Counted from the stretch's first letter, positions 3,436 to 39,748 are shown. The stretch is 64,000 nucleotides of DNA from Candidatus Obscuribacterales bacterium (GCA_019748395.1 JAIEPM010000047.1:15084-79083), one strand, 5' to 3'. Notes: generated from the letters alone by a model not told the origin. Translations and numbers: made by a program.

Positions 3436-3888
3436 ATGTGGAAAAATCTGCTCTTAGCTGCTCTTCTAATAGCAAGCTTAACCCCGCTTACCGCTGCCGC
3501 TTACGACTTGACAATGTTGAAAGGTACCTACGTTCAGTTCTCCGATATTGGTGTCCCTTATGTGAAAAAGCTGATTCTGGCGCAAGGTGAACACGGCAAG
3601 GTTAAAGTCAGTGCCGTACTCAGTCATATGCCGAATGAGCAAAGCGTCACCGCAGAAGCCGAGGCCTATATTCAGCGCGATGCAAAACTCATGCAGGATA
3701 AACGAACCGGCGATAGGTTGCTTGTTACCTTTACTACGCCGAAGTTTTCAAATTTCATGGAGATAGACACAGGCAGGCGTGCGGCCGGACAAGAGCCTGA
3801 CTGGGCGACCGTAAATGTTCGCAGCTTTATCAAGCACGCCGATGGTCATAATGAGTATTTCGACGAGGTGCTTGATCGAACCGAATAG
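3436..3888 (+). CDS. Secreted hypothetical protein
   Basis: 150-aa ORF with AAGGGA upstream of the ATG. Classic Sec signal peptide MWKNLLLAALLIASLTPLTAAAYD. Confidence 0.6.
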   Translation: MWKNLLLAALLIASLTPLTAAAYDLTMLKGTYVQFSDIGVPYVKKLILAQGEHGKVKVSAVLSHMPNEQSVTAEAEAYIQRDAKLMQDKRTGDRLLVTFTTPKFSNFMEIDTGRRAAGQEPDWATVNVRSFIKHADGHNEYFDEVLDRTE

Positions 3889-6612: not shown

Positions 6613-8541
6613 TTACTTGCGCGTTTTGTCTTCTTTCTGCTTCAGCTTGGCTGCCTTGTCTGTGAGTTTGTCGACGTTTTTGACAAGGTTGGCTTTATCT
6701 TTGGCTGTCAGATCGGTCTTCAGCAGCAAGTAGTTTTGGTATTGAACTACGGCTTCAAGCAGCATGCTCGAGCTGGCCTTGGGAGTTTTTTCCAGAGCCT
6801 GACCTAGTCCATAGTGAGCATCTGCTTGCATCGGATTTGCAGCCAATGCTTGACGGAAACGCTCAACAGCTCCGTCCCATTGTTTCTTGGTCAGGAGTTC
6901 GTTGCCGACGGTTGTTGAATCTTGCGCCGTTTTTCTGGCTGCCGCTACCGCATCAAGCCCTCTTTTACCGCGCTCGGGAGCGCCCGAGAGAGTCAGTGCC
7001 TTATTGTAAGCAGCTTGCGCATTATCGAGATCGTGCATCATCAAAGCAATGTCGGCAACTGCAAAAGTTTGCTTGGCGTCTGCGACATTCATCAGGACCG
7101 TTTTCATCATGTTTGAGGCTTCGATGAACTCGCCGTTTGCCATCAAGGCTTGTGCATAAGCAATACGTTCGCCGTCGTTGCCTGGTTGACCCATGGTTGA
7201 AAGATCAGGCTTGGTGCCGGAAAGCGACATGAGCTTTGCTTTTGATAGGCGCAACTCCATATCATTTGGATTCAACTGAATGGCATCATCCAGAGTTTTC
7301 AATGCCGATTCGTAATCGTTTGAAGCCAGTAAGGCGCCAACTGCGGCCTTTTGAGCCTTCATATAGAGGGCTTGAGAAAGTCCCTTGATTGCAGATGGGT
7401 TATTGGGACTCATTTGTAAAATGGTCTTATAGGCTTTGATTGCATCATCCGGCTTTTCCAATCGCAATGTTATGTCTGCGATACGCTGGCGCAAGTCCAG
7501 ATTGTATGGGGCTTGCGTTAAGCCTGAACGCAAGTCTGCAAGCGCTAATTCGTTATCGCCGCGTTCTTGATGAATGTCGGCCATTGCAAGATAAGGCTCG
7601 ACGTTTTCAGGCTTGATCAATGTCGAAAGTTGAAACTCTTTCATGGCAGCGACAGTGTTACCCTGCTTGGCATAAGCTTTTCCAAGCTCCATGCGTGTGG
7701 GCCAGCTGTTCGGGAACTGATACAAAGATGTATTCAATTCTTTGATTGCATCATCAAGCTGACCGAGCTGCGAATAGGCTGCACCAAGCCCGAAGTGGGC
7801 TTGCGAGTTGCCTGAGTTCAATTCAATGGCGCGTTTGAAATTCTCAACAGCTTCTCCCAGGCTCTTCTGGTCTAGCTTGATTGTTCCCAGACCGGAGTAA
7901 GCATAAGATTGGTTTGGATCAAATTGAATTGCAGTTCTCAATTCGCTTGCAGCTTGATCAGTCTGTCCTTCTTCTTTGTAAACCAGACCCAGCGTCAGGT
8001 GACCTTCGGCTCCGGCCGGTTGCAAGCGGCAAGCTTGCTGGGCATATTGTTCGGCTTGCTTCAAATAAGAATCGCGATTGGCTCTAATTGTCCCAGCCGA
8101 TGACTGCATACGATTCAATAGGACTGTGGCTTTGCCAGCAAATGCCAGGGCATTGTTTGGATCCTGTCCGAGAACTCTGTCGAAAAGATCGTCGGCGCCA
8201 TCAAGTTTGAACTGCTTTGCAAGTGACAGACCCAGACCTACAGTAGCTTGCAAGTCTTGCGGATTGTTGACAAGTAACTCTCTGAACATGCCTTCGGCAT
8301 CTGCGTATTTGCCTTCTGCCAGGGCTTTTTCAGCCGGTGCGATATCTGTTTTGACTTGACCGCTGAGAATTTGATTGTTTGAACTGGGTGTCGGTGCCGT
8401 GTTAGCTCCGGAGTTCGGATAGCTTCCTGTGCCGGGAACTCCCGGAATCTGGGCGTTAGCTGGTAGCAGGCTAAACGCGACGCTCAATGCCAATGTTGTA
8501 ATTGGGAGCTGCTTGGTAAAACGGCGATATGCTGCGTTCAT
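6613..8541 (-). CDS. Secreted TPR-repeat protein
   Basis: Many 34-residue TPR-like units, e.g. AIELNSGNSQAHFGLGAAYSQLGQLDDAIKEL. I prefer the ATG at 8541 (MNAAYRRFTKQLPITTLALSVAFSLLPANAQ, a signal peptide), which has GAGG 8 nt upstream. The track ORF extends to 8598. Confidence 0.85.
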   Translation of the reverse strand: MNAAYRRFTKQLPITTLALSVAFSLLPANAQIPGVPGTGSYPNSGANTAPTPSSNNQILSGQVKTDIAPAEKALAEGKYADAEGMFRELLVNNPQDLQATVGLGLSLAKQFKLDGADDLFDRVLGQDPNNALAFAGKATVLLNRMQSSAGTIRANRDSYLKQAEQYAQQACRLQPAGAEGHLTLGLVYKEEGQTDQAASELRTAIQFDPNQSYAYSGLGTIKLDQKSLGEAVENFKRAIELNSGNSQAHFGLGAAYSQLGQLDDAIKELNTSLYQFPNSWPTRMELGKAYAKQGNTVAAMKEFQLSTLIKPENVEPYLAMADIHQERGDNELALADLRSGLTQAPYNLDLRQRIADITLRLEKPDDAIKAYKTILQMSPNNPSAIKGLSQALYMKAQKAAVGALLASNDYESALKTLDDAIQLNPNDMELRLSKAKLMSLSGTKPDLSTMGQPGNDGERIAYAQALMANGEFIEASNMMKTVLMNVADAKQTFAVADIALMMHDLDNAQAAYNKALTLSGAPERGKRGLDAVAAARKTAQDSTTVGNELLTKKQWDGAVERFRQALAANPMQADAHYGLGQALEKTPKASSSMLLEAVVQYQNYLLLKTDLTAKDKANLVKNVDKLTDKAAKLKQKEDKTRK

Positions 8542-8664
8542 AGAATGAGCCTCGTAAATTCCAAATCGATTGGCTCTCAAGCATATAACGTCCGGCATTA
8601 CAAAATACGCTCAGGCAAGTTTCGTAAACTTCGAAGCTTAGCTGATTTCCAGCCTGCCAATTCG

Positions 8665-9523: not shown

Positions 9524-10039
9524 TTAGACCACATAAGCGCCCAGTTTGCGCAGTGCTTTCTGTGCTTTCCAGCGGACTTCGTGATTGCTATCTTCAGCAG
9601 CTTTATGCAGGGCATCTATAACAACCTGCGATTTGCCGCCAAGTTTGCCGAGAGCCTTTGCTGTGGATTTCCGAACTTCATCATCGGGATCTAAAATTAG
9701 GGTACAGAGTTCTTCCAGAACAGTTTCCTCAAGTCCGTCGATTTTTTCCAGACAATGAACTGTTTCGCGGCGAACCCATTCGTCGCTGTCTTTCAGTGAT
9801 TCGTGAATCAGTCGCAAATGTGATTTTGCGATGCCGGGTCTTTCCTGAAACCAGCGCAATGCCGCAAGCTTTACCAGCGGATTATCGTGTTTCAGAGCCT
9901 GTGCGTATGTTTTTGGGTGATATTTACTGATTGCATCAGGCAAGCCTAATTTCAGTGAGCGTTCTTCGAAACCCGGATAGCTCAACTGAGTGATCATGTC
10001 GAGTACAACTTCCGCGAAATTCTCTAATTCTTTTTCCAT
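9524..10039 (-). CDS. HEAT-repeat (PBS-lyase-like) protein, cytoplasmic
   Basis: Repeated D..VR..a..aL..lG units: DEWVRRETVHCLEKI, DDEVRKSTAKALGKLG, NHEVRWKAQKALRKLG. GGAGA lies 5 nt upstream of the ATG. No signal peptide. Confidence 0.8.
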   Translation of the reverse strand: MEKELENFAEVVLDMITQLSYPGFEERSLKLGLPDAISKYHPKTYAQALKHDNPLVKLAALRWFQERPGIAKSHLRLIHESLKDSDEWVRRETVHCLEKIDGLEETVLEELCTLILDPDDEVRKSTAKALGKLGGKSQVVIDALHKAAEDSNHEVRWKAQKALRKLGAYVV

Positions 10040-10053
10040 CGCTTCTCCAGGCT

Positions 10054-11391
10054 TTATTGCCCTTGTAACTGTTTCATCATTTTTTGCATTAGTTGCATTT
10101 GCTGCTGTAGATTCCCAGCACCATTATTGCCGCCTCCGCCATAGGGGTTGGCACCGCCCTGCATCAGGCTGCCGAAGGGATTGGCTGCTCCGTAAGGGTT
10201 TTGTGCAGGACTCGGGCTTGAGTTTCCGTAGGATCTGTCAAGTGTTCCATACAAAATATATTTCGTTTGCCAGTGTCCGTCGTTTCGGTAGTAAACGAAA
10301 GCTGCTTGTAAGTAAAGTTGATTGTTGCTTATTTTGGTAAATCGCAAAACGCTTTCAGAATAGCCTGTTTGGGTTTTGCCTGTACTGGGGTTTCTGTCGG
10401 TATCCCGGGTTACAACCTCTTGCTCAAGCACTCCTTTTGTGAGTTCTTTCAACTCATTTTTCATGAGCGTATTGCTTATCTGGTTTCCGGTTATGCCGAT
10501 TGTATTGGCACCAATCGGGGCTCCCAGATGCAGAGAGTAAGTTACCGGAACCTGCATGTTTGCGAGCATGGAGTTGTTGGCGCCGCCGAACATCGCTCCC
10601 ATTGGTGTTCCCTGCATGATCTTCATTTGATCTGCGGCGCTATCCATTGCCGTGAAGAAAACTTCGCATGGTTGCGCTGCAACGCGGTTGTTGGCCGTTT
10701 GATAGAAATTTACAGTCACCTGACCCTTGTTTCCGGGTCTCATCCAGCGCATTTCTTTTTCGGCTTCGGCACGGTCGAATTCAAAATAGCTCTTGTCGAA
10801 ATTGGCCGACCATAAGTTCATCGTGCCGGACCATGAGCCGCGATAGTCGACAGGGTAAGACTGAACAACAGCCTTTCCGGCTTCTATACTCGCAGAGGAC
10901 TTCAGCTTGCTGTCTAAACTGCTGTCGCGAATCGGTGTCATTGCCACCATCTTTAGTGGCAGCTTCGCTCCGACGCCGCTTGAAAGCTGTTCGATTCTTC
11001 CGTAGAGCTTTATCGGCTGCGCGGCTGGATGAGCCGGCGGTGCTGCTTTTGCTGTTTCTTTCGGCAATTCTGAACTGCTTTTGTGCAGCTCAGGCTCTTT
11101 ATTCACTTTTTCATGAACAGCTTCTTTGGGGGGAGTTTCGTTATGTGTTGGCGAGACTGCCGTTTCAGTAGATTCACCCGGACTGTTTTTGCTTTGCTCG
11201 GGAGAAGCAGCTGGAGAGCCTGCGGCTGTCTCGTTTGAACTTGAAGATCCGCTGCTGCCGCTTTGCGCTGCTGCCGATGTTCCGCTGCTGTTTGCTGCCG
11301 ACGGGTCATCTGCATAAGCCGTGCCTGTAGAGAGCAAAGCCGCGCTCAGTGCAAGAACGAGCCACTTGTCCTGCTCACCGCTAAAGAACAT
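10054..11391 (-). CDS. Secreted protein of unknown family, paralogue A (S/A/G/P-rich N-region, G/N/Q/M-rich tail)
   Basis: 445 aa with a signal-like N-terminus, then a low-complexity Ser/Ala/Pro linker. The conserved core is shared with 8665-9507. The C-terminal tail is NPYGAANPFGSLMQGGANPYGGGGNNGAGNLQQQMQLMQKMMKQLQGQ. Its ATG (11391-11389) directly abuts the stop of the upstream gene (11394-11392). Confidence 0.8.
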   Translation of the reverse strand: MFFSGEQDKWLVLALSAALLSTGTAYADDPSAANSSGTSAAAQSGSSGSSSSNETAAGSPAASPEQSKNSPGESTETAVSPTHNETPPKEAVHEKVNKEPELHKSSSELPKETAKAAPPAHPAAQPIKLYGRIEQLSSGVGAKLPLKMVAMTPIRDSSLDSKLKSSASIEAGKAVVQSYPVDYRGSWSGTMNLWSANFDKSYFEFDRAEAEKEMRWMRPGNKGQVTVNFYQTANNRVAAQPCEVFFTAMDSAADQMKIMQGTPMGAMFGGANNSMLANMQVPVTYSLHLGAPIGANTIGITGNQISNTLMKNELKELTKGVLEQEVVTRDTDRNPSTGKTQTGYSESVLRFTKISNNQLYLQAAFVYYRNDGHWQTKYILYGTLDRSYGNSSPSPAQNPYGAANPFGSLMQGGANPYGGGGNNGAGNLQQQMQLMQKMMKQLQGQ

Positions 11392-13507: not shown

Positions 13508-14887
13508 TCACGAGACTGCGGCTTTGGTTTCCTTTTTCCAGACTGGTAGGAAACAAATGGAAATCATACCAGGTACGGTAATTAAGAAGCTCAGGAGGAA
13601 GAAGTTAGCATAACCAATTGCTTCATATACGTAACCGCTGGCCATGCCCGGTACCATCAAGCCAAGAGCCATCAAGGCCGTGGCGACGGCGTAATGCGCT
13701 GCCTTGTATTCCTGGCTGACCGTACTGAGCAGGAATACTGTGTAAGCCGCCATGCCGAAACCATAGCCGAATTGTTCAAGAGAGTTGACTACATAAATCC
13801 ATAATATGGATTGGGGATGGAAAACAGCCAGCAGCCAGTACAAAACTATGGTGCCGTTCATTACAAGCGTTGCCGGCCAGAACCAGCGCTTTAAGCCTTG
13901 CTTGCTTACAAGATATCCGCCTACGATTCCTCCTAACAAAAGGAATCCGACACCAACAGTGCCGTAGATCTGACCGACTGTTTGCACTGAAAGATTCATT
14001 CCGCCTTTGGCTATTGGATCTTGCAAGAAGGGCGGAATCATTTTCATGACCATGGCATCGCCGAGACGAAAAAGCAATATGTAGAAAACAATTGCAATTG
14101 CGCCCGGTTGTGCAAAGTAGGAGAGGATCGCGTTTAAATAATTGCGAGGTGGATGCTGTGTGCGAGAACTTGTGCTGCTGCCGTTGACGCCGTTGTTGCT
14201 GCCGTTGTTTGCGGCTGCGTCATCGCGACCGTTGCTTGCTTTTGAATCGGCAAGAGCAAGAGCCAGGGCTGCTGCCTGCGGGACTTCCTCTTGTTGCTCC
14301 TGCGATTTGTTTGGCAAGTAGAATGCATGTAAAACTGTTCCAAGCAGCATCACTGCTGCAATAACCAGAAAGGCCGTCATCCAGGCTAAACTCTTGCCGG
14401 TTTGGGCTGTGAGTGAGCCTGCCAGGCAGACCATGGCACCGCTTCCGAAGATCATCGATAAGCGAAATGCCGTGTTGCGAACGCCGACAAAAAGCGCTTG
14501 CTGTGAAGGTTCCAGTGCTTCCAGATAATAACCGTCGATTGATGCATCATGCGTTGCAGAAGCCAGGGCTGTTATAGCCAGGACAGCAATACCGAAATTG
14601 ACCGGGTCTGTCGAGATGCTGCTCAGTGCAAGTGCAATAAAAAGAATGGTGAGCACCACCTGTGCCACCACAATCCAGTGTTTCTTTCGTCCGAAAAAAT
14701 CAATTAGTGGAGCCCAGGCAAATTTGAGCATCCAGGGCAATTGCAGAGCGCTTGTCAAACCGATAAGCACATTGCTTGCACCGAGGTCCTTAAAATAAAC
14801 CGCCGACATCATCATCACGACGGTGTAAGGAAGCCCCTCCGCAAAGTATAGAGTTGGGATATACACCCAGGGACTGCGTTTTGCCAT
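13508..14887 (-). CDS. ampG: AmpG-like MFS (muropeptide-type) permease
   Basis: The N-terminal pattern YFAEGLPYTVV...LQLPWMLKFAWAPLIDFFGRKKHW matches the AmpG signature (G.P......lPy.lKflWaP.vD..grrr.W). About 12 to 14 hydrophobic segments, with a long Asn/Gly/Ser-rich central loop. I prefer the ATG at 14887; the track ORF starts at a TTG at 14911. Confidence 0.8.
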   Translation of the reverse strand: MAKRSPWVYIPTLYFAEGLPYTVVMMMSAVYFKDLGASNVLIGLTSALQLPWMLKFAWAPLIDFFGRKKHWIVVAQVVLTILFIALALSSISTDPVNFGIAVLAITALASATHDASIDGYYLEALEPSQQALFVGVRNTAFRLSMIFGSGAMVCLAGSLTAQTGKSLAWMTAFLVIAAVMLLGTVLHAFYLPNKSQEQQEEVPQAAALALALADSKASNGRDDAAANNGSNNGVNGSSTSSRTQHPPRNYLNAILSYFAQPGAIAIVFYILLFRLGDAMVMKMIPPFLQDPIAKGGMNLSVQTVGQIYGTVGVGFLLLGGIVGGYLVSKQGLKRWFWPATLVMNGTIVLYWLLAVFHPQSILWIYVVNSLEQFGYGFGMAAYTVFLLSTVSQEYKAAHYAVATALMALGLMVPGMASGYVYEAIGYANFFLLSFLITVPGMISICFLPVWKKETKAAVS

Positions 14888-15106
14888 AGAAATCACCAGC
14901 CAGCTTGCCAAGGCAATAGCTTAGCAAATTAGAGCGTCTTTTACTCCAATCAACCCCGCAAAACTTCCTCATTTTGAAAATGCAAGCAATCGCGCAGGGC
15001 ATCTGTAGGGGGGACGCCATGCGTCACTCTGCAAAAGTCTCTGGTCTAGTTGACCGTTCTTATCTGCTATTATCAGGACCTCAGGAATTCGGAGCGCATT
15101 TGAAAG

Positions 15107-16474
15107 ATGAGCTGTTCAGGAAAAAAACGCCTGTTTTTCCAGGCTAAATTCGGCTCTGCACTGACCGCTCTTGCGACGATGCTATGCTCGGTATCGCAAG
15201 CCGCGTTTTCCGAACAAGAGCTCAAAGGCGGCTCGGATGCAAACAGTGACTCCAAAACCAATTCTACGGACAACACAAAGATTGATTTTAGTTTGACTGA
15301 AGCTGCTGCAAACGAACTCACAATGAAGTTGAATGAGCTCGTGAGCAGCAAGTATTTTGACAAGGCTATTGTCGAGAAAACCTGGAATCCGGCATTTGCT
15401 GTTTACAAACCGGTTTTGCTAAGCCAGAGAAATCTGCTTCAATTTTCGAAAAAAGCAAACGAGTTGCTGGCTATCCTGCATACAAGCCACACCCAGTTTT
15501 TGACTCCTAATGACGAAGCCTTTTACTTCATGCGCAGTTTGTTCGGATCGTTCAATAAAGACGAGAAAGATCCACATAAGAACGATGCAGATTTCACCGG
15601 ATTGGGTGTCGGCGGTGCGCAGGCAGACTCAAATCAAGTTCGCTATGTTTTAGATGCCAGTCCGGCTGCTCTTGCCGGATTTAAGAGAGGCGACAAGATT
15701 CTTAGCGTAGATCGCAAGGCTTTTTCCGGATATGCCGACTGGTTTCAGCGATCCGGAAAAGTAACTGCAGTGGCAGTTGAAAGAGGCGGCAAAATCATTG
15801 AGCTGAAAATTACGCCCAAGAAGCAAGACTTTCTTGAAGGCTATGTTACTGCGACCGAACGAAGTGCGCGTGTGATCGAGAAAAACGGAAAGCGTATAGG
15901 CTATCTGCATTTCTGGAGCGGCGGCAATGGCAGTCATGATGCTCTGGAAGCTGCAATTTCAGAGAAATTTTCTGGCACAGACGCTCTGATTCTCGATCTG
16001 AGAGATGGTTATGGCGGCGCTTCTTTGGATGATCTGGATATTTTCTTTCGACCTAAATCTGCATTTCCGGACATTCGAACTTATGGACGTGGCGAATACA
16101 GATTTGAACGTTCTTATTACGATAAGCCTCTGGTTGCGCTTGTGAACGGCGGTGTTCGCAGCGGCAAAGAACTGCTGGCATATGGTTTGAAGCGCAGTCA
16201 TCGTGCTACGTTGATCGGGGTGCCAACTGCAGGTTTTGTCGTAGCAGGGCAGTTCAATCCGCTAACTAAGAATGCGATTCTTTATCTGGCGGTCTTGGAC
16301 ATAAAGCTCGATGGCTTGCGTTTAGAAGGTAAGGGCGTCGCTCCCGATATCCTGCTTGAAGATAAATTGGGAGCCGATGATCCGCTTCTGAATCGCGCAC
16401 TCGCCTTTCTTTCTTCTCAAGTTAAAACAAGCTCCGCGCCTGCTCTTCGACCGCGACCTTCCAAACGGCACTGA
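15107..16474 (+). CDS. S41-family (tail-specific/C-terminal processing type) peptidase with PDZ-like domain
   Basis: Signal peptide, then PDZ-like GVGG...VLDASPAALAGFKRGDKILSVD. The S41 core follows: DALILDLRDGYGGAS, LVALVNGGVRSGKELLAYGLK, LIGVPTAG. Confidence 0.8.
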   Translation: MSCSGKKRLFFQAKFGSALTALATMLCSVSQAAFSEQELKGGSDANSDSKTNSTDNTKIDFSLTEAAANELTMKLNELVSSKYFDKAIVEKTWNPAFAVYKPVLLSQRNLLQFSKKANELLAILHTSHTQFLTPNDEAFYFMRSLFGSFNKDEKDPHKNDADFTGLGVGGAQADSNQVRYVLDASPAALAGFKRGDKILSVDRKAFSGYADWFQRSGKVTAVAVERGGKIIELKITPKKQDFLEGYVTATERSARVIEKNGKRIGYLHFWSGGNGSHDALEAAISEKFSGTDALILDLRDGYGGASLDDLDIFFRPKSAFPDIRTYGRGEYRFERSYYDKPLVALVNGGVRSGKELLAYGLKRSHRATLIGVPTAGFVVAGQFNPLTKNAILYLAVLDIKLDGLRLEGKGVAPDILLEDKLGADDPLLNRALAFLSSQVKTSSAPALRPRPSKRH

Positions 16475-16688
16475 AAAGGAAAATAGTGAGGATGGTCTGA
16501 GAAGCCGGCTGGAAGCCGGCGCTGCCGGGCTAGAGTGAGTGTTTGATGTCAAGAAGGGGCGGGGATTCAGGGCTTTGTCTGCTGTTTGTAATTGGCTTTC
16601 TCTAAGCGGATATAAATAGAAGTAGAAAATTCGAGCTGATCGCCGCTAACTCGGCGAAAATCTTTTTGTACCGTTCCAGGAGAGTAAG

Positions 16689-18965
16689 ATGAGCCAGTTG
16701 AAACTTGAGGATATCAAGAAGCTTTATGAAAGCGCGCCGTCAAAACTAGAGAAGGCGCGGAAGTCACTCGGGCGTGGACTCACCCTGGCTGAAAAGATTT
16801 TGTATGCTCATCTTGATGACACAAATGAGAAGCCGGTTCGTGGCGAATCAGTGGTTATGCTCAAGCCCGATCGCGTAGCCATGCAAGACGCAACAGCTCA
16901 AATGGCTTTATTGCAGTTCATTCAAGGTGGATTCAAAACAGTTGCAGTTCCTTCGACTGTTCATTGCGATCACTTGATTCAAGCTCGTCGCGGCGCAGCT
17001 GAAGACATGAAAGTTGCTCTAGATGAAAACAAAGAAGTCTATGAGTTTCTGCGCACTGCAAGTGCCAGACACGGCATCGGTTTCTGGAAACCGGGCTCGG
17101 GCATCATTCACCAGGTTGTTCTGGAAAATTACGCATGTCCCGGCACACTCATGATCGGTACCGATTCGCACACCCCCAACGCAGGCGGTCTGGGGATGCT
17201 GGCTATCGGCGTCGGTGGCGCCGACGCTGTAGATGTGATGGCCGGCGAAGGTTGGGGCTTGAAGTGGCCTAAGCTCATCGGTGTTAAGCTGACAGGCAGC
17301 CTCAAAGGTTGGACGGCACCCAAGGATGTAATTCTCAAGCTGGCAGGATTGCTGACGGTTAAGGGCGGAACCAACGCTATTATTGAATACTTCGGACCGG
17401 GCACCAGATCAATCAGTTGCACAGGGAAAGCTACGATCACCAACATGGGTGCCGAGCTTGGTGCCACCACTTCCGTCTTCCCCTTCGACGAGCGCATGGT
17501 CACTTATCTTCAGGCAACGGATCGCGCTGATATCGCTAAACTTGCTCAGGATCACAAAGATTACCTGGTGGCTGATTCGGAAGTCGAACAAAATCCGGAG
17601 AAGTATTTCGATCAAGTAGTCCATATAGATCTCGATACGCTTGAACCGCATGTAGTCGGTCCGCACAGCCCCGACCTGGCAAGACCTATTTCCCAGATGG
17701 CCAAAGATGTAAAAGAAAATGGCTATCCGGATGAGTTGAAATACGGTTTGATTGGCAGCTGCACAAACTCTTCTTATGAAGATATGGGACGCGCTGCAGA
17801 CCTGGCTAAACAAGCTGCTAAAGCCGGTATCAAGGCTAAAATGGGACTGATGGTCTCTCCCGGCTCAGACCAGATTTACGAGACTATTAAGCGCGACGGT
17901 CAGATGGAAGCTCTTGAAGCAATCGGAGCTACTGTTCTGGCTAATGCTTGCGGACCCTGTATTGGTCAATGGAAGCGTGACGATATCAAAACCGGCGACA
18001 AAAACTCAATTGTTTCGTCTTTCAACCGCAACTTCAGTGCTCGTAACGATGGCAATCCCGAAACACTGTCCTTTATCACCAGCCCTGAACTGGTAATTGC
18101 TTTTGCACTTGCCGGAAAGCTTTCGTTCAATCCTTTGACTGATAGCATCAAAACCGATAAAGGCGAAATTAAACTGGAAGCACCGGCGGTGGCACCTGAA
18201 ATTCCGGCCAAGGGATTTATCAGCCGTCTTGAAGGATTCATTCAAGCACCGGCCGACGGCAGCAAAGTTGAAGTCAGCGTCAATCCTGCAAGTGAAAGAT
18301 TGGCTTTGCTTGAACCTTTTAAAGCCTGGGACGGTAAGGACTATACAGAACTTGCCGTTCTCATGAAAGCCGAAGGAAAGTGCACCACAGATCATATTTC
18401 GCCGGCCGGAAAATGGTTGCGCTTCCGCGGACATATTGATCGAATCAGCGACAACATGTTCACCGGAGCACTCAACGCCTTTACCCACAAGAACGGTGAA
18501 GGTCTGAATGTTCTTGACGGCAGCACCGGCACATATCCGCAAGTTGCCCGCGACTACAAGAAGAATGGTCTTGGTTGGATAGCCGTCGGCGATCAAAACT
18601 ACGGTGAAGGCTCCAGTCGCGAACACGCCGCTATGTCGCCGAGATATCTTGGTTGCAAGGCTGTTATTGTACGCAGCTTCGCTCGAATTCACGAAACTAA
18701 CTTGAAGAAGCAGGGCATTCTGCCTTTCACTTTCGAAAATCCTGATGATTACAACAAAATCCAGGAGAAAGATCGTGTAACTTTGATCGGCTTGAATCAA
18801 CTCAAGCCCGGTCAGAATGTGGAAGCGAAGTTGAAGCACGCCGATGGCAGTGAAGATACAATCAGTCTGAAGCACAGTCTGACTCACGAACAAATTGAAT
18901 GGTTCAAAGCCGGTTCAGCTCTCAATCTAATTCGCATGCGCCGCGAAGGTGTCTTGAGCAAGTAA
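16689..18965 (+). CDS. acn: Aconitate hydratase (about 758-aa, mitochondrial-type length class)
   Basis: AGGAGAG lies upstream of the ATG. Hallmark motifs are present: GTDSHTPNAGGLG, GSCTNSSYEDM, NACGPCIGQW, DQNYGEGSSREHAA. Confidence 0.95.
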   Translation: MSQLKLEDIKKLYESAPSKLEKARKSLGRGLTLAEKILYAHLDDTNEKPVRGESVVMLKPDRVAMQDATAQMALLQFIQGGFKTVAVPSTVHCDHLIQARRGAAEDMKVALDENKEVYEFLRTASARHGIGFWKPGSGIIHQVVLENYACPGTLMIGTDSHTPNAGGLGMLAIGVGGADAVDVMAGEGWGLKWPKLIGVKLTGSLKGWTAPKDVILKLAGLLTVKGGTNAIIEYFGPGTRSISCTGKATITNMGAELGATTSVFPFDERMVTYLQATDRADIAKLAQDHKDYLVADSEVEQNPEKYFDQVVHIDLDTLEPHVVGPHSPDLARPISQMAKDVKENGYPDELKYGLIGSCTNSSYEDMGRAADLAKQAAKAGIKAKMGLMVSPGSDQIYETIKRDGQMEALEAIGATVLANACGPCIGQWKRDDIKTGDKNSIVSSFNRNFSARNDGNPETLSFITSPELVIAFALAGKLSFNPLTDSIKTDKGEIKLEAPAVAPEIPAKGFISRLEGFIQAPADGSKVEVSVNPASERLALLEPFKAWDGKDYTELAVLMKAEGKCTTDHISPAGKWLRFRGHIDRISDNMFTGALNAFTHKNGEGLNVLDGSTGTYPQVARDYKKNGLGWIAVGDQNYGEGSSREHAAMSPRYLGCKAVIVRSFARIHETNLKKQGILPFTFENPDDYNKIQEKDRVTLIGLNQLKPGQNVEAKLKHADGSEDTISLKHSLTHEQIEWFKAGSALNLIRMRREGVLSK

Positions 18966-18990: not shown

Positions 18991-19024
18991 GAGCCCGACC
19001 GGATTATGGTCGGGCTCTATCTCT
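18991..19024. terminator. Hairpin terminator between convergent genes
   Basis: GAGCCCGACC (18991-19000) pairs with GGTCGGGCTC (19008-19017) around a 7-nt loop, followed by TATCTCTT. It lies between the acn stop (18965) and the stop of the minus-strand gene at 19039. Confidence 0.6.
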
Positions 19025-19038
19025 TAGCGGTTATCGGC

Positions 19039-19827
19039 TCAGTTCTTGTTCTTGCTTTTATTCAGTTGAGATTGAACCGAATGTAAATCCACATCAGCTG
19101 CGATGCCGAATCCGTTTTTGGGTGGAGCTGGGAACTTCATTTTCTCAACCATTGAGATGGCTTTATCGTCGATTGATCTTGATCCCGAACTGACCGAAAG
19201 GAAGACTACATTCACTTTGCCCTCAGGGTTCAGTCCTACTCGAATAAACGGTCCGGGAGTTCCGGGCATGAGTTCTCGCCATTGCTTGTTGACTTGGCTT
19301 ATCATCGATTCTTTGTATAAGAGCTGTTCAGGGGTATCTGGTGGCGGTCCGGCTGTCAGTCCTCCGGCTGCTCCACCAGGAATGCTATTGAATTTGGGCG
19401 TCTGAGCCGGTGGCGTTGCTGTTTTGCTGCAAGCTGAATCCATGATCACTGTTTTTTTGCTTTGCTGCGGTTTGGCCGCTTTGGAGCTGGGGCTTTGAGA
19501 GAATGCTGGAATATTTGCAAGCAGCAGACTCGCTATCGCTGCTGCCCACTTAAGTGTTTTTCGCGCTGCGTTGCGGACCCGGCGCAATGCTAGCGGGCAG
19601 TCGTCCGTAATTATGGTGCCGTCCTGTCGTCGAAATATACGACCGCAAAATTTTCCTTCGGTTTGAATTATCAAATCACTCAGTTCTTTAGAGCTGAGTT
19701 CCGAGCAGTTGTATACATTTTTTTGACAGCCTCCGCAAAAACGAACTCTTTCGTCGCCCTCGAGTTCATCCCAATTCATCGCACAGGGAGTTGCGATATA
19801 AAACTTGTCTATTTCTTTTGTCATCAA
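19039..19827 (-). CDS. Cys5 zinc-ribbon-like / single-TM / TolA-TonB-C-like protein, tandem paralogue 1
   Basis: 262 aa. N-domain PCAMNWDELEGDERVRFCGGC...EGKFCGRIFRRQDGTIITDDCP, basic stretch LRRVRNAARK, then helix WAAAIASLLLANIPAFSQ. The C-terminal module is YKESMISQVNKQWREL...GKVNVVFLSVSSGSRSIDDKAISMVEKMKFPAPP. Confidence 0.85.
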   Translation of the reverse strand: MMTKEIDKFYIATPCAMNWDELEGDERVRFCGGCQKNVYNCSELSSKELSDLIIQTEGKFCGRIFRRQDGTIITDDCPLALRRVRNAARKTLKWAAAIASLLLANIPAFSQSPSSKAAKPQQSKKTVIMDSACSKTATPPAQTPKFNSIPGGAAGGLTAGPPPDTPEQLLYKESMISQVNKQWRELMPGTPGPFIRVGLNPEGKVNVVFLSVSSGSRSIDDKAISMVEKMKFPAPPKNGFGIAADVDLHSVQSQLNKSKNKN

Positions 19828-19835
19828 AATCAGTC

Positions 19836-20642
19836 CTATTTCCGGGTTTTGTCGGTTTTTGAGTAAACAGTCTGAAGATCTATTTCAATTTTTGTGCGCT
19901 CGGCAGGTGGATTTTCGTATTTGAGTTTCTTGATTAACTCAAGTGCTTTGGTATCAAGCACAAGATCTCCGGAGCTCCTGCTAATTTTCGCGCTCAATAT
20001 AATTCCGCCTTTGCCTATCTCTGCATTTACGATGGGACCAGCTTTTGCGCCTGCTTGAAGCCTCCATTCATCATTTATCTTTTTGATTGTGCTTTCTCTG
20101 TAATGACTGTCTTGTAAAGCTTTCACGGCCGGTGGTGTTGCTCCGATGCCGCCGTCGTATATTTCAATGTCTTTCCTGGCTCTGACTCTGCCTTCAATGA
20201 AATCGCGAGCAGGCTGTGTTTTTGAACTGTTTTTTGAGGAGCAAGATGAATCAATAAAAAAAGTTTTTTTGTTTTTGACGTCGGCTTCAGATTTTGATCC
20301 GGCGTTTGTGTTTTGAGCAAAGGCCGGCAAAGCTGTAAGCAGAAAAGCTGCAAAAGTTGCGGCAAAGTTCAAAGTCTTTCTGGCTGCATTGCGCAGCCGG
20401 CGAAGACCAATGGGACAGTCGTCAGTGAGAATGGTTCCGTCAGAGCGCCGATAGATGCGGGCACAAAATTTTCCTTCAGTATCCTGAATTAAGGCGCGCA
20501 GTTCATTTGAAGTCATTTTGGAAGTGTTATAAACGTTCTTACTGCAAACTCCACAAAAACGGACGCGTTCATCCCCGGTCATATTCTCCCAGCCCACCGA
20601 GCAGGGAGAGGCTATGAAAATTTGTTCTATCTCAATCGACAT
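19836..20642 (-). CDS. Cys5 zinc-ribbon-like / single-TM / TolA-TonB-C-like protein, tandem paralogue 2
   Basis: 268 aa with the same N-domain and the same Cys spacing (PCSVGWENMTGDERVRFCGVC...EGKFCARIYRRSDGTILTDDCP). A TM helix follows, and the C-terminal module is diverged. It lies 8 nt upstream of paralogue 1. Confidence 0.85.
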   Translation of the reverse strand: MSIEIEQIFIASPCSVGWENMTGDERVRFCGVCSKNVYNTSKMTSNELRALIQDTEGKFCARIYRRSDGTILTDDCPIGLRRLRNAARKTLNFAATFAAFLLTALPAFAQNTNAGSKSEADVKNKKTFFIDSSCSSKNSSKTQPARDFIEGRVRARKDIEIYDGGIGATPPAVKALQDSHYRESTIKKINDEWRLQAGAKAGPIVNAEIGKGGIILSAKISRSSGDLVLDTKALELIKKLKYENPPAERTKIEIDLQTVYSKTDKTRK

Positions 20643-20654
20643 CTACGCATACCT

Positions 20655-21458
20655 CTATTTGCCTTTCTCTTGATTTTTGGAATGAACCGTGTGTAAATCT
20701 ACCCTAAGGTTTGAATAGTCGGCAGCCTGTGTAGGAGCGGAAAATTTCATATTGCGCAGCATATTCAATGCTTTTGTGTCGACTAGCAGATCGCCGGAAC
20801 TAACGCTGATACTGCTACCGGCCAGCTTCCCCTCGGCTGTCAATGTTATCAACATTATCGGACCTGCTTTGCCGCCCTCCTCCTTCAACCATTGTGCGTT
20901 TATTTGCTGAATGCTTGATTCGATGTAGGCGCTAACCTGTGGACTTGGAGCTCGCGAAACCGCTACTTTTCCTCTCATAACCGCAGGCGGTGCTGCAACC
21001 ATTTCACCTTTTACCAACCTGGGCTGATCTGAAGGTGACTTCTTATCGGAACTGGAGCAAGTTGTGTCCATTAGAATCGTTGTTTTGCCCTTTCCGTCTT
21101 TTTTCTTGCTCGGCTCATCCTTTGCGGACTGAGCAAGCGCGGGCAAGGAGGCCAACAGTAAGGCTGATATTGCGGCTGTCCATTTGAGAGCCTTACGAGC
21201 TGCGTTTCGAACTCGGCGAAGCCCCTTTGGACAGTCGTCGGTAATTATTGTGCCGTCCGACCTTCGGTATATTTGAGCGCAAAACTTTCCTTCGGTTTTG
21301 ATTATTAACTCATTGAGCTCTTTTCGGCTCATTTCAGAAGCGTTATATACGTTTTTCCGGCAAAGACCGCAAAGTCGCTGGCGTTCGTCGCCGTCCATTT
21401 CGTCCCAGTCAGCCGCGCAGGGAGTAGCGATGTACATGCGCTCTATTTCGTAAATCAA
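20655..21458 (-). CDS. Cys5 zinc-ribbon-like / single-TM / TolA-TonB-C-like protein, tandem paralogue 3
   Basis: 267 aa with the N-domain PCAADWDEMDGDERQRLCGLC...EGKFCAQIYRRSDGTIITDDCP. A TM helix follows, and the C-terminal module is diverged. It lies 12 nt upstream of paralogue 2. Confidence 0.85.
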   Translation of the reverse strand: MIYEIERMYIATPCAADWDEMDGDERQRLCGLCRKNVYNASEMSRKELNELIIKTEGKFCAQIYRRSDGTIITDDCPKGLRRVRNAARKALKWTAAISALLLASLPALAQSAKDEPSKKKDGKGKTTILMDTTCSSSDKKSPSDQPRLVKGEMVAAPPAVMRGKVAVSRAPSPQVSAYIESSIQQINAQWLKEEGGKAGPIMLITLTAEGKLAGSSISVSSGDLLVDTKALNMLRNMKFSAPTQAADYSNLRVDLHTVHSKNQEKGK

Positions 21459-21577: not shown

Positions 21578-22999
21578 TTATAGCGAGTTCGGGTCGCTCC
21601 AATAAATGGCGTCTGCATGTTTAAAACAGGACCGAGCGCGGTCCGGGTCTTGCGATTGTTCAAAAAGTCGCCCCAGGAATCGCCAGAGCTGGTCGTTTTT
21701 TGGTTCTTGATCCAGCAGTTCTTGAACCCGGGCGATGCTGTCTTTTAGTTTTCCGCTCAGCAGAACGGATGGGTCGGCTGAGGCTGTTTGAAAAACGATT
21801 TGTGCGGCAGAGAGGCGCTGGTCATCCGGTGAGCAACGCTTGCATTCGTTGTATTCCACTTCTGCCCTGCCGAGGTCGCCCTTTATTAAATGTCCTGCAG
21901 CCAGCATCATGTGGTTGTTGGCTTCGTGGGGCATGTTATTCACAGCTTCACTGGCGCATCTAATCAGAAGGTTGACTGCCTCCTTATTTCGCGGATTCAG
22001 CGTGACTGCTCGCCGCGCATCCATGCTTGCATTCTCAAGCAAGATAAAGCGAGTTTCTGTTGCTGCTCTGGCTGCGAAATAACGAGAATTTTCCAGAAAA
22101 AGCTTCGCCAAAAGACAATGAGCAGTCGAGAGCTTTAGCTTGTTTGCGTCCGGCCAATTGCTATTGACGATTTTGCGCAGCTCGACAATTGCCTGCCGGT
22201 CGCTTCCGGCTTCAATAAGGGCATTGGCAAGTCTAGAGCGGTTTTCGCAGGAGTTTTTGATTTTTACGACAGCCTGCCATTCGGCTGCTGCCAGTTGGTA
22301 ATCGGCTTGATTTTCGAAATTTTCAGCAAGCGAAATACGAAAGTCTAAATTGTAAGGATCCTGGTCTTGCTCAAGCAATTCATGATTTAGCAAGCTGGAG
22401 ATTTCTTTGTTCGACGAATCATAAAATAAGGCAAGACGCAGCAGGTCGGCTCTAAGTCTGCTTTTCTTTTCATTAGTTGCCAGCTTGCTCAGCTCAGTGC
22501 TGATGCGCTCAATCATGCCTTGTTCATCCGAAGACTTTTTCATCGCTCCGTCAAACTCTTTGGCCGCAAGGGTCAGATGACCGTGAGACGCAAATTTTCG
22601 CGCCCTGTCGAAATATTTTCCGGCTTTCTTATCCTGATTCTTAGGCTCAAAAATATCGGGATCTTGAGTATCCTCAGGTAAACTGACTACCTGCGGCATG
22701 GGTGGAAACATGCCGGGAACTTCCGGCTCAGAGCAATTCACCGGTTTAATCAGCAGGCTTCTGAGGCGTATGTCGCCGTTTGAGATCTCGTAATCATCCT
22801 TCTCTCCGACTGTCCCGAATGTTTCACCCTGCAGTTGCGGGGCATCGCCTGAATCGAAACTGTCGCCGGTGTAAGTCTGAGTCTGAGTGCCCGTGTATTC
22901 ACAGGTGGAGTCGAAAGCATCCTGCGCACCGGCTTTCAGAGCCGGGTTCGCCAGTAATAATGATATGAAGACGGCGGCATAAGAGTTGCTGAATTTCAT
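21578..22999 (-). CDS. Secreted helical-repeat (TPR-like) protein
   Basis: 473 aa with signal peptide MKFSNSYAAVFISLLLANPALKAGAQD and AAGGA upstream of the ATG. The C-terminal two thirds are TPR-like helical pairs. Same strand as, and upstream of, the triplicated genes. Confidence 0.75.
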   Translation of the reverse strand: MKFSNSYAAVFISLLLANPALKAGAQDAFDSTCEYTGTQTQTYTGDSFDSGDAPQLQGETFGTVGEKDDYEISNGDIRLRSLLIKPVNCSEPEVPGMFPPMPQVVSLPEDTQDPDIFEPKNQDKKAGKYFDRARKFASHGHLTLAAKEFDGAMKKSSDEQGMIERISTELSKLATNEKKSRLRADLLRLALFYDSSNKEISSLLNHELLEQDQDPYNLDFRISLAENFENQADYQLAAAEWQAVVKIKNSCENRSRLANALIEAGSDRQAIVELRKIVNSNWPDANKLKLSTAHCLLAKLFLENSRYFAARAATETRFILLENASMDARRAVTLNPRNKEAVNLLIRCASEAVNNMPHEANNHMMLAAGHLIKGDLGRAEVEYNECKRCSPDDQRLSAAQIVFQTASADPSVLLSGKLKDSIARVQELLDQEPKNDQLWRFLGRLFEQSQDPDRARSCFKHADAIYWSDPNSL

Positions 23000-26556: not shown

Positions 26557-27642
26557 ATGATGAGCACGCAGGGCACACTGCAAAACCGATATCGTATTGA
26601 AAGTGTCCTCGGCCAGGGCGGCATGGGCACTGTTTACCTGGCCAAGGACATCAGGCTCGACGAGCGGCTTTGTGTTGTAAAGGAGCTGCGTGACGATTTT
26701 TATCGCGATGAAGACAAGCAGCGGGCTTTGAGTTTTTTCGACCGAGAGGCGCGCATGCTTGCGCGTTTGAAGCACGGCAGCATCGTCCAGGTCAGCGACT
26801 ATTTTAGTGAACAGGGTAAGTATTTCCTGGTCATGGAATATGTGGAAGGTGAAAATCTCCACAGCATCATGCAAAAACGCGAAGGCGAGGCATTTGATGA
26901 AAAGCAGGTTGTCAGTTGGGCGATTGAAATTTGTGATGTACTGAGTTACCTGCACGCTCAGGACCCGCCGGTTATTTATCGGGACCTCAAACCGAGCAAT
27001 ATCATGATCAGCTCAGGCGGTCAGTTGAAGCTTGTTGATTTCGGTATCGCCAGAAAAATTGAAGCCGACGACGAAAATACCCGGGTTGTTTCTGCCGGTT
27101 ATTCTCCACCCGAGCAGTATTGGGGTGCGGCTAATATTCAATCGGATCTTTACGCGCTGGGTGCCACCATGTTTTTCCTCTTAACAGGAAAAGACCCGGA
27201 GCCTTTGAAAATAAACTCTCCTTGCGAGCATAACTCCGAAGTTTCCGAATATCTGGATTCGGTTGTGCAAAAATGCATGGCGCAAGAAACTGCTCAGCGC
27301 TACTCAAGCGCCCGAGAACTTCGCGAAGCGCTTTTATATGATGATTATGAGGAAGAGCCGGACAATCCGAAAGGCTGGTTTACTCGAAATGTGGCTGCGG
27401 TGATTTTCATCGTGGCGGTGGCACTGGTATTTATTGGTTGGGAACCAATCGTAAACAGCTTCAAGTCCGATCCCAAGCCTGCAAAAGTAAATGCTCCGCT
27501 GGGGTCAAGCGAGAAAGCCGTGGACGATCCTACTTATTCAGATCCGCTTCTGGGCGGCGTAGCACCACAGAAGGGCTTTGCTTTGCAAGTCACTGACGAA
27601 GCCAGTCTGACCGATCTGGAAGCAAGGCCGAAGCAAAAATAG
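26557..27642 (+). CDS. Hanks-type Ser/Thr protein kinase with one TM helix and short Pro/Ser-rich external tail
   Basis: Kinase motifs GQGGMGTVYLA, VVKEL, YRDLKPSNIM, DFGIA, SPPEQ. TM helix VAAVIFIVAVALVFIGW. Confidence 0.9.
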   Translation: MMSTQGTLQNRYRIESVLGQGGMGTVYLAKDIRLDERLCVVKELRDDFYRDEDKQRALSFFDREARMLARLKHGSIVQVSDYFSEQGKYFLVMEYVEGENLHSIMQKREGEAFDEKQVVSWAIEICDVLSYLHAQDPPVIYRDLKPSNIMISSGGQLKLVDFGIARKIEADDENTRVVSAGYSPPEQYWGAANIQSDLYALGATMFFLLTGKDPEPLKINSPCEHNSEVSEYLDSVVQKCMAQETAQRYSSARELREALLYDDYEEEPDNPKGWFTRNVAAVIFIVAVALVFIGWEPIVNSFKSDPKPAKVNAPLGSSEKAVDDPTYSDPLLGGVAPQKGFALQVTDEASLTDLEARPKQK

Positions 27643-30463: not shown

Positions 30464-30606
30464 TTTAATAGGGCAACTGAGTGCGATCTACTTGCGCTGA
30501 AATCGATCTATCTGTAACTGCTGCCTGCAAATGAATAGTGGTTCTCGTTTTTGTTTGATTGCTGTAAGATGGGCTGATTAAGCCAAACTTGAGTCAGCGA
30601 AACCCC

Positions 30607-39373: not shown

Positions 39374-39748
39374 CTAGGCTTCCATCAGCCAGTTTGTATG
39401 CGCCTTCGAATTCAATTGTGCATAACAACCGAACTCGGCAGGTAAATCGGAGAGCCCTTCCTTAGCCATCGCAACGGCTCTCAAAGCTTGCTGTGCTTTG
39501 ATCCTGGTTGCTTGCGGCACACCGGGTGCATCATAGATGAACTGGAAGAGTCTTTGCGCACTTGGGTACTGAGCTGTTTTGTAGTAGCATGCGCCTAAAA
39601 GCAGCCGTGCATCCCAGTTCTTGGGCTCCACGTCCAGGATTTCCTGCAACGCCGGGATTGCCTCTTTGTACTTCTTTGCTTTATAGAGCTGTAGCGCTTT
39701 AAGTGCGACTGATGCATCAAGATTACAGGTGTTAAATGTGATTTCCAT
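39374..39748 (-). CDS. Small TPR protein
   Basis: 124 aa with two to three TPR units (ALQLYKAKKYKEAIPALQEILDVEPKNWDARLLLGACYYKTAQYPSAQRLF). Its stop is 5 nt from the ddl stop (convergent). Confidence 0.65.
   Translation of the reverse strand: MEITFNTCNLDASVALKALQLYKAKKYKEAIPALQEILDVEPKNWDARLLLGACYYKTAQYPSAQRLFQFIYDAPGVPQATRIKAQQALRAVAMAKEGLSDLPAEFGCYAQLNSKAHTNWLMEA

Follow-up and report, generated by a model that had tools for sequence, protein, structure and literature searches.

Three tandem five-cysteine membrane proteins with TonB/TolA-like C-terminal domains in a Candidatus Obscuribacterales genome

Are three adjacent genes for membrane proteins ending in a TonB/TolA-type domain genuine energy transducers, or do their products belong to something else? 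The question is raised by positions 19039 to 21458 of a 64-kb stretch of DNA (GCA_019748395.1 JAIEPM010000047.1:15084-79083, the whole of which is called the window here) from a metagenome-assembled genome of Candidatus Obscuribacterales (Melainabacteria), a lineage of non-photosynthetic cyanobacterial relatives. C-terminal domains (C-domains) of the TonB/TolA type are the standard diderm link from the inner membrane to outer-membrane processes. What stands out most is how large and how well conserved an unnamed family of five-cysteine (Cys5) N-terminal domains (N-domains), to which all three proteins belong, proves to be, together with a motif in the periplasmic tails of that family, here called the MG motif. 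The three proteins are probably not classical transducers energised by ExbBD or TolQR.

Three head-to-tail open reading frames (ORFs) on the minus strand, separated by spacers of 8 and 12 nt, were confirmed where a first-pass annotation of the sequence had placed them:

19039..19827, minus strand: paralogue 1, 262 amino acids, from a TTG at 19827
19836..20642, minus strand: paralogue 2, 268 amino acids, ATG start; P0009 in the profile search
20655..21458, minus strand: paralogue 3, 267 amino acids, from a TTG; the same protein as NCBI P0001, 'TonB family protein'

The NCBI model of paralogue 1 (P0002, 261 amino acids) starts one codon later at the ATG at 19824, which would make the spacer 11 nt. 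Compared in pairs along their full length, the three proteins share 41-48% identity (BLASTP, E 1e-66 to 1e-79), a paralogy far beyond chance that bears out their description as true paralogues. Identity between paralogues is 62-69% in the N-domain, 79-86% in the juxtamembrane stretch, 50-61% in the transmembrane segment, 28-38% in the linker and 28-40% in the C-domain; the cytoplasmic part is thus better conserved than the periplasmic part, as had been proposed. The members of the triplet are one another's closest relatives, the next full-length relatives being 30-36% identical, which suggests that an ancestor with the complete architecture was duplicated locally. Neither 185,579 species genomes nor the metagenome collection yielded an orthologous locus for the triplet, every match covering the N-domain only.

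The Cys5 domains occupy the cytoplasmic N-termini of the three proteins:

21225..21458, minus strand: Cys5 domain of paralogue 3, residues 1-78, cytoplasmic
20409..20642, minus strand: Cys5 domain of paralogue 2, residues 1-78, cytoplasmic
19591..19827, minus strand: Cys5 domain of paralogue 1, residues 1-79, cytoplasmic

The pattern C-x15-C-x2-C-x26-C-x15-C is exact in all three, with cysteines at 14, 30, 33, 60 and 76 in paralogues 2 and 3 and at 15, 31, 34, 61 and 77 in paralogue 1, and the identical spacing first reported was confirmed. The order of elements predicted for paralogue 3 is a beta strand, a CxxC knuckle hairpin, a helix, a beta hairpin and a CP leading into the membrane helix. 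In the model of the domain the CxxC lies at the turn of a beta hairpin, a zinc-knuckle arrangement, and C60 and C76 flank the second hairpin. Probably the N-domain is a zinc site built on this CxxC knuckle.

Searches for a name for this domain returned nothing at fold, sequence or literature level, as the first-pass annotation had anticipated. Foldseek matched it to no fold in the PDB (best E 0.49, probability 0.15) or among viral models, a nine-sequence profile found no relatives among PDB sequences, Pfam and NCBIfam offered weak sub-threshold matches at most, and full-text searches of the literature found no description of it. The label 'zinc-ribbon-like' given to it at first was not upheld, the domain having a single CxxC, about 78 residues and no PDB sequence or fold match. 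Two leads from the weak matches were followed and dropped. The four-cysteine TSCPD/TIGR03905 family, suggested by a match at E 0.022 and a T-x-D-C-P motif, was matched by only 1 of 88 N-domains. The KDM6 GATA-like zinc domain was the commonest weak Pfam match (20 of the 88), always sub-threshold, and such matches are a mere hint of a possible cysteine-driven metal site.

The family itself is large. When 1.84 billion representative proteins, clustered at 50% identity, were searched with a profile, 15,103 clusters matched at E <= 1e-3, 2,037 of them at E <= 1e-30, and the window ORFs match the family profile at E 5e-38 to 7e-40. All five cysteines are kept in 153 of the 155 sequences examined, and in a 149-sequence alignment the invariant positions are C14, W18, G23, R28, C30, C33, V37, C60, R66, D68, C76 and P77; mean column identity across the 88 N-domains is 63%. 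Matches in species genomes come mostly from Pyrinomonadaceae and other Acidobacteriota, and members also occur, often in several copies per genome, in Obscuribacterales/Melainabacteria, Myxococcota, Planctomycetota and others. A cultured carrier is Minicystis rosea DSM 24000 of the Myxococcota (locus L057). The domain is effectively always N-terminal, 'internal' copies looking like over-extended ORF calls. A search for Rosetta-stone fusions with the N-domain profile reached 1,559 proteins, the best 120 of which carried no Pfam domain or informative name.

Tandem arrays of two or three Cys5 genes were present in 10 of 80 genome loci and in several phyla (Myxococcota, Acidobacteriota, Planctomycetota and Melainabacteria), each array with its own tail type; the family seems prone to local duplication. 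Examples are:

L087, 1668..3861: triple with CarboxypepD_reg-like tails
L031, 9031..11282: tandem array
L061, 9782..12129: tandem array
L023, 243..2517: tandem array
L085, 2277..3853: pair with the full TonB-C architecture

The periplasmic tails of the family have a median length of 75 residues. Most of the 149 tails have no C-terminal Pfam domain; CarboxypepD_reg was found in 13, TonB_C in 8 and TonB_2 in 4. A hidden Markov model of TonB-C tails, built from post-helix tails only, found only 13 distinct proteins in the representative set and, in the 80 genome loci, only 2 genes of the family. The TonB-C fusion is a rare variant of the Cys5 family. What recurs in the tails is the MG motif, P-x-x-[VTL]-M-G-x-[IVM]-A-x-P-P, often in one to three copies at a median of 28 residues past the helix. 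The MG dipeptide occurs 303 times in tails against 57 expected, and MG-x-[VIML] is present in 131 of 238 tails (about 55%) against about 13 in shuffles. The proline-flanked, beta-prone character of the motif recalls the TonB D-box. Clear copies occur in the nearest full-length relatives (L085), and in the window proteins the motif is degenerate (VKGEMVAAPP / VMRGKVAV; GGIGATPPAV; GGLTAGPPP):

about 20985..21030, minus strand: degenerate MG site of paralogue 3
about 20130..20160, minus strand: degenerate MG site of paralogue 2
about 19350..19390, minus strand: degenerate MG site of paralogue 1

Between the Cys5 domain and the tail lies one hydrophobic segment per paralogue, ending in ALAQ, AFAQ or AFSQ and preceded in all three by the basic stretch LRRxRNAARK:

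21129..21182, minus strand: hydrophobic segment WTAAISALLLASLPALAQ of paralogue 3, residues 93-110, following the basic stretch LRRVRNAARKALK
20313..20366, minus strand: hydrophobic segment FAATFAAFLLTALPAFAQ of paralogue 2, residues 93-110
19495..19548, minus strand: hydrophobic segment WAAAIASLLLANIPAFSQ of paralogue 1, residues 94-111

An N-in, single-pass topology, as first proposed, is supported by the family: the roughly 12 residues preceding the helix average 4.4 K/R against 0.15 D/E, and a second hydrophobic segment is absent in 150 of 154 members. Counted from the invariant CP, arginine stands at +4, +7, +9 and +12 of the juxtamembrane stretch, and small residues recur along the helix as a conserved ladder (A16, A/S19, A/S/G23, S/G26-G27, A/G30), a pattern that suggests helix-helix packing or oligomerisation. 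In the AlphaFold2 model of paralogue 3, made with the 149-sequence alignment, one continuous helix (77-112) is followed by a disordered linker (118-164). The periplasmic linker of about 60 residues is neither helical nor a Pro-X repeat. It holds a conserved segment, K(K/T)T-x-(I/F/L)(M/I)D(S/T)xCS, which lies 12-14 residues after the helix in all three and contains a sixth, periplasmic cysteine:

21054..21086, minus strand: conserved periplasmic segment KTTILMDTTCS of paralogue 3, 14 residues past the helix, with the sixth conserved cysteine
20238..20270, minus strand: equivalent segment of paralogue 2
19426..19458, minus strand: equivalent segment of paralogue 1

The basic stretch, the single helix with its three endings and the (I/F/L)(M/I)D(S/T)xCS motif were all as originally described. 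KTTILMDTTCS is placed much as the D-box is in TonB; it does not reproduce the alternation of hydrophobic and hydrophilic residues seen in the Escherichia coli D-box.

The C-terminal module was located in each protein:

20685..20927, minus strand: C-domain of paralogue 3, residues 178-258, alpha-beta-beta-alpha-beta
19866..20102, minus strand: C-domain of paralogue 2, residues 181-259
19075..19317, minus strand: C-domain of paralogue 1, residues 171-251

All three score 28.5-30.5 bits with TIGR01352 (tonB_Cterm; cut-off 27.1), and they match Pfam TonB_2/TonB_C at or near threshold. The AlphaFold2 model has a confident C-domain at residues 173-254, with a pLDDT (predicted local distance difference test) score of about 90. 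Searched against the PDB with Foldseek, this domain returned C-domains of TonB, HasB, FusB and TolA as all of its top 19 targets (probability 0.30-0.99, at least 0.7 for 17 of the 19). The best target-normalised template-modelling scores (0.56-0.62) belong to TolA domain III, and the closest PDB sequence is Pseudomonas aeruginosa TolA domain III, at a marginal E of 0.044. TIGR01352, the model and the fold search together bear out the TonB_2/TolA-like fold suggested at first sight, and the domain leans to the TolA/TonB_2 flavour. None of the three outcomes named beforehand as refuting the observation came about: the N-domain matched no well-characterised family, its cysteines are conserved among relatives, and the C-terminal fold is related to TonB/TolA. 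The observation made in the first-pass annotation is confirmed and its interpretation partly supported.

A fourth protein with a TonB_2/TonB_C domain is encoded in the window at 32833-34230 on the plus strand (465 amino acids, Pfam E 5.5e-14). The protein carries a signal peptide of the classical type, lacks a Cys5 domain, and shares 26% identity with paralogue 3 in the C-domain. The module sits there on an ordinary signal-peptide protein and is therefore not confined, in this window, to motor-coupled anchors.

The three genes form a probable operon of lineage-specific paralogues. A GAGG or AGGA motif precedes every one of them. The triplet fits one transcription unit because no terminator-like element was found in its two spacers and a hairpin follows the last stop; the hairpin is likely the 3' end of the unit. 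In the 119-nt gap upstream no match to a sigma-70-type promoter was found. The flanking elements are:

18991..19017, minus strand: terminator-like hairpin with a 10-bp stem (8 G-C pairs), just past the paralogue 1 stop and between convergent genes
21578..22999, minus strand: secreted TPR protein of 473 amino acids, upstream of the triplet after the 119-nt gap

The TPR gene had been placed upstream on the same strand from the beginning, and this was confirmed. Its co-transcription with the triplet, or a partnership between the products, is no more than possible. No match to its product was found in any fetched relative locus, and it is not conserved beside relatives. Next to it, two genes upstream of the triplet, a 917-amino-acid secreted TPR protein with a C-terminal matrixin-type Peptidase_M10 domain is encoded at 23156-25909 (minus strand). 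It contains an Ala/Lys/Glu-rich repeat region of about 150 residues (AAEKAKAAELAQIAAEKAKAQELARLAAEKA...), which may resemble the helical domain II of TolA. An association of the triplet with the upstream TPR gene or with M10 was considered and rejected, the M10 matches in L069 and L078, from other Melainabacteria, not being operonic. An S41-PDZ protein is encoded at 15107-16474. Three Ser/Thr protein kinases and at least five TPR proteins, not counting the two encoded upstream of the triplet, make the window unusually rich in both, the listed ORFs being:

3830..5872, 26557..27642 and 40486..41565: kinase ORFs
6613..8598, 39374..39748 and 51435..52553: TPR ORFs

TPR genes being common in the window, their adjacency to the triplet could be chance. 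Further away are a 725-amino-acid Eco57I/MmeI-like N6-DNA-methyltransferase with a TaqI-like specificity domain (30589-32766, plus strand), possibly a type IIG restriction-modification enzyme, and, about 23 kb from the triplet, a 454-amino-acid protein with PD40 (TolB-like beta-propeller) repeats (44275-45639, plus strand).

A scan of all non-overlapping ORFs of at least 100 amino acids in the window found no ExbB/TolQ/MotA, ExbD/TolR, Plug/TonB-dependent transporter or extracytoplasmic function (ECF) sigma (Sigma70_r2/r4) genes, and confirmed the earlier statement that no motor gene of the TolQR, ExbBD or AglRQS type is present. Across the 80 loci, the Pfam families listed for the 150 nearest neighbours of Cys5 genes include no stator, receptor or sigma families, and no gene neighbour is conserved beyond lineage synteny. 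The clusters obtained by BLAST from 515 neighbours, the largest spanning 12 loci, were set aside as housekeeping genes syntenic within Pyrinomonadaceae.

TonB and TolA are force transducers whose N-terminal helix carries an SHLS (Ser-x3-His) motor-binding motif common to both (PMC12204202), whose domain II spans the periplasm and whose C-domain binds through beta-strand addition (PMC12204202; PMC10907165); just past the anchor lies the D-box or motor box, a proline-flanked, beta-prone strand captured by ExbD or TolR (PMC10907165). The paralogues resemble them in being N-in single-pass inner-membrane proteins with a flexible periplasmic linker and a C-domain that matches in profile and fold, and in having a short beta-prone segment soon after the helix, at the place of the D-box. 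They differ in having a folded 78-residue Cys5 domain in place of a short N-terminal stub, a helix that lacks SHLS and is not at the extreme N-terminus (residues 93-110), and a linker of only some 60 residues, and in having no linked ExbBD/TolQR, TolB/Pal or receptor gene in the window. Of the TonB/TolA features tested, the paralogues clearly have the C-domain only.

The layout had also been likened to that of GltG and GltJ of the Agl-Glt gliding machinery of Myxococcus xanthus. In GltJ a 42-residue ZnR domain with the pattern CxxC-x19-CxxC (C5, C8, C28, C31; PDB 7Z0K) (PMC11135422) stands before a GYF domain, and two FHA domains are found in GltG, the cytoplasmic regions comprising 330-385 residues; the C-domains of both are predicted to dock on the periplasmic TPR protein GltD (PMC11761067). 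A cytoplasmic interaction domain, one helix, a long disordered periplasmic segment and a TonB-CTD-like domain are shared with the paralogues, and both cases involve paralogues, as pairs within one machine in Myxococcus, and TPR proteins, encoded here just upstream of the triplet. The paralogues have instead a single domain of 78 residues in which CxxC occurs once, and Pfam detected neither GYF nor FHA in them. No AglRQS or other Glt genes were found in the window, where a weak generic TPR similarity to GltE reached 30.5 bits against a cut-off of 225. The likeness holds for the overall layout and fails at the domain level, where cysteine pattern, length, GYF/FHA content and fold all differ. The same applies to ZitP and other MJ0042-type proteins, the zinc ribbon of GltJ being stated to resemble that of ZitP (PMC11135422). 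They too have an N-terminal cytoplasmic zinc-binding module on a membrane helix, used for protein recruitment, but cysteine pattern, length and predicted secondary structure differ and the N-domain has no fold match in the PDB; a GltJ/ZitP zinc ribbon was rejected for the Cys5 domain.

The function of the paralogues is unproven. The explanation favoured here, which is given an even chance of being right, is that they are stator-independent envelope tethers or adaptors with a new cytoplasmic metal-binding anchor. Each paralogue would be a trans-envelope tether or adaptor, its C-domain using beta-strand addition, in the manner of TolA and TonB, to capture a strand from a partner in the periplasm or the outer membrane, and its Cys5 domain and helix coupling the envelope contact to a conserved cytoplasmic or inner-membrane partner; alternatively, coupling could be replaced by oligomerisation through the small-residue face of the helix. 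Duplication followed by periplasmic divergence may have produced three partner specificities on one common anchor; the single cytoplasmic partner and the varied envelope targets supposed in the first-pass annotation are a reasonable reading. The architecture, the signals of topology, the C-terminal fold, the extent of the family and the lack of SHLS and of linked stator or sigma genes are observed, and metal binding, the role as tether or adaptor, the diversification of partners and the independence of a stator are inferred.

Several points weigh against this explanation. A partner was found on neither side of the membrane, the confidence of the dedicated N-domain model is moderate (pLDDT 76), and the proposed zinc site is deduced from the invariant cysteines only. 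The linkers of the paralogues hold D-box-like, proline-flanked, beta-prone segments. Two distant family members that bear TonB-C are encoded near TonB-dependent-type barrels of the outer membrane: P0018 lies 151 nt downstream of an Oar-like barrel gene (CarboxypepD_reg plus OMP_b-brl_4), and P0048 lies 3.5 kb upstream of a STN-Plug-TonB_dep_Rec gene in an iron-uptake-like cluster:

L083, 6842..9850 and 10001..10903: barrel-adjoining locus
L081, 10001..10924 and 14404..16851: barrel-adjoining locus

In E. coli tonB is unlinked to exbBD, as tonB genes often are to their motor, and a missing nearby stator does not exclude energisation. The barrel adjacency and the D-box-like segments would fit a motor-coupled role.

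On that account the paralogues would be genuine TonB/TolA-type energy transducers, pulled by a distantly encoded proton-driven motor of the ExbBD, TolQR or AglRQS kind. Either the MG motif or the TILMD segment would be the D-box or motor box, the Cys5 domain would be a regulatory add-on comparable to FHA in GltG or ZnR-GYF in GltJ, and the three copies would serve different outer-membrane receptors. TIGR01352 scores above cut-off, the TonB/TolA-like fold and the public annotation 'energy transducer TonB' are all in keeping with it, as are the two barrel-adjoining genes and an enriched MG motif that is proline-flanked like the D-box (PMC10907165). What makes it rather unlikely is the helix, in which the Ser-x3-His of TonB and TolA (SHLS; PMC12204202) is missing. 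The three paralogue helices contain no histidine at all, and among 286 family helices S-x3-H occurs in 2 and any histidine in 5%. ExbB, ExbD, TolQ and TolR are absent from the 64 kb, from the 20-kb loci of P0018 and P0048 and from the families listed for the 150 neighbours; most family members lack TonB-C, and the linker has only about 60 residues and no Pro-X repeat.

The endings of the hydrophobic segments raise another possibility, since they resemble signal-peptidase-I sites (LPALA/QS, LPAFA/QN and IPAFS/QS, the slash marking the cut), with proline at -4, small residues at -3 and -1 and then glutamine. The segment could be an internal cleavable Sec signal peptide, cut after ALA, AFA or AFS, so that a soluble periplasmic TonB-C protein would be released and a Cys5-plus-helix remnant of about 110 residues would stay in the membrane. 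Residues 79-110 follow the n-h-c plan of signal peptides, with a basic n-region and a hydrophobic core of 12-13 residues, and the small-x-small/Q ending recurs in the triple of L087, an unrelated subfamily (AFSQT, TFSQT, SFSQT), and in similar form in the nearest relatives (ALA/G, AQA/Q), such endings having been noted in L085 and L058 too; the fourth TonB_2 protein of the window is moreover an ordinary secreted protein. Against cleavage, the uncharged run around the segment is anchor-typical (20, 22 and 27 residues in the window proteins, family median 22), the small-residue ladder found throughout the family suggests lasting helix packing, the modelled helix runs through the site without a break, and the AxA-type pattern present in 114 of 154 members is loose and was counted without a shuffle control. 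Cleavage is accordingly regarded as quite unlikely.

Anti-sigma-like or ToxR-like transducers, whose Cys5 zinc domain would keep a regulator sequestered or itself bind to DNA, and would be released or activated upon periplasmic engagement or by regulated intramembrane proteolysis, are the least probable alternative and are judged very unlikely. The layout matches that of many anti-sigma factors (PMC7826278), and ZAS/zf-HC2 proteins likewise have a cytoplasmic cysteine-containing domain, probably zinc-binding, one helix and a variable extracytoplasmic part in a modular, multi-copy family. The recurrent GATA-like matches in 20 of 88 N-domains and the periplasmic proteases encoded nearby (TPR-M10 at 23156-25909, S41-PDZ at 15107-16474) also speak for it. 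The paralogues, however, lack the H-x3-C-x2-C motif and an adjacent ECF sigma gene, none being present in the window, nor in the listed families of the 150 neighbours, and zf-HC2 (PF13490) gave no match at E <= 1 in the three proteins and does not appear among the families listed for the 88 N-domains; a ZAS anti-sigma factor was rejected on these three grounds. The core of the N-domain has a net charge near zero (mean -0.3), unlike a DNA-binding finger, the GATA-like matches are all sub-threshold, and the M10 association is not operonic in other Melainabacteria. The paralogues belong to neither the GltJ/GltG nor the ZAS families.

A wider form of the proposal that the paralogues are stator-independent tethers or adaptors, more doubtful than the proposal itself, extends to the whole family. 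The Cys5 domain, the Arg-rich stretch, the small-residue helix and the MG motif may together define an unrecognised, widespread class of envelope-spanning proteins with interchangeable periplasmic heads (TonB-C, CarboxypepD_reg or none). Its members might be a third kind of force or signal transducer, docking a motor or partner through the MG strand and not through SHLS, or metal- or redox-gated adaptors, and the triplet would be the version with a TolA/TonB-type head.

What the triplet presents is a TonB/TolA-type head on an anchor that has, in place of the motor-binding motif, a conserved five-cysteine domain in the cytoplasm, and the label 'energy transducer TonB' in current records probably overstates what is known of such proteins. 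The Cys5 family is worth defining because it is large, conserved across phyla and without a Pfam, NCBIfam, structure or fold match in the searches run, and it offers a concrete, clearly bounded object for defining a new family and for experimental work. If the tether or adaptor proposal is true, these bacteria would couple envelope contacts to the cytoplasm by a route unlike both the Ton/Tol and the Glt solutions.

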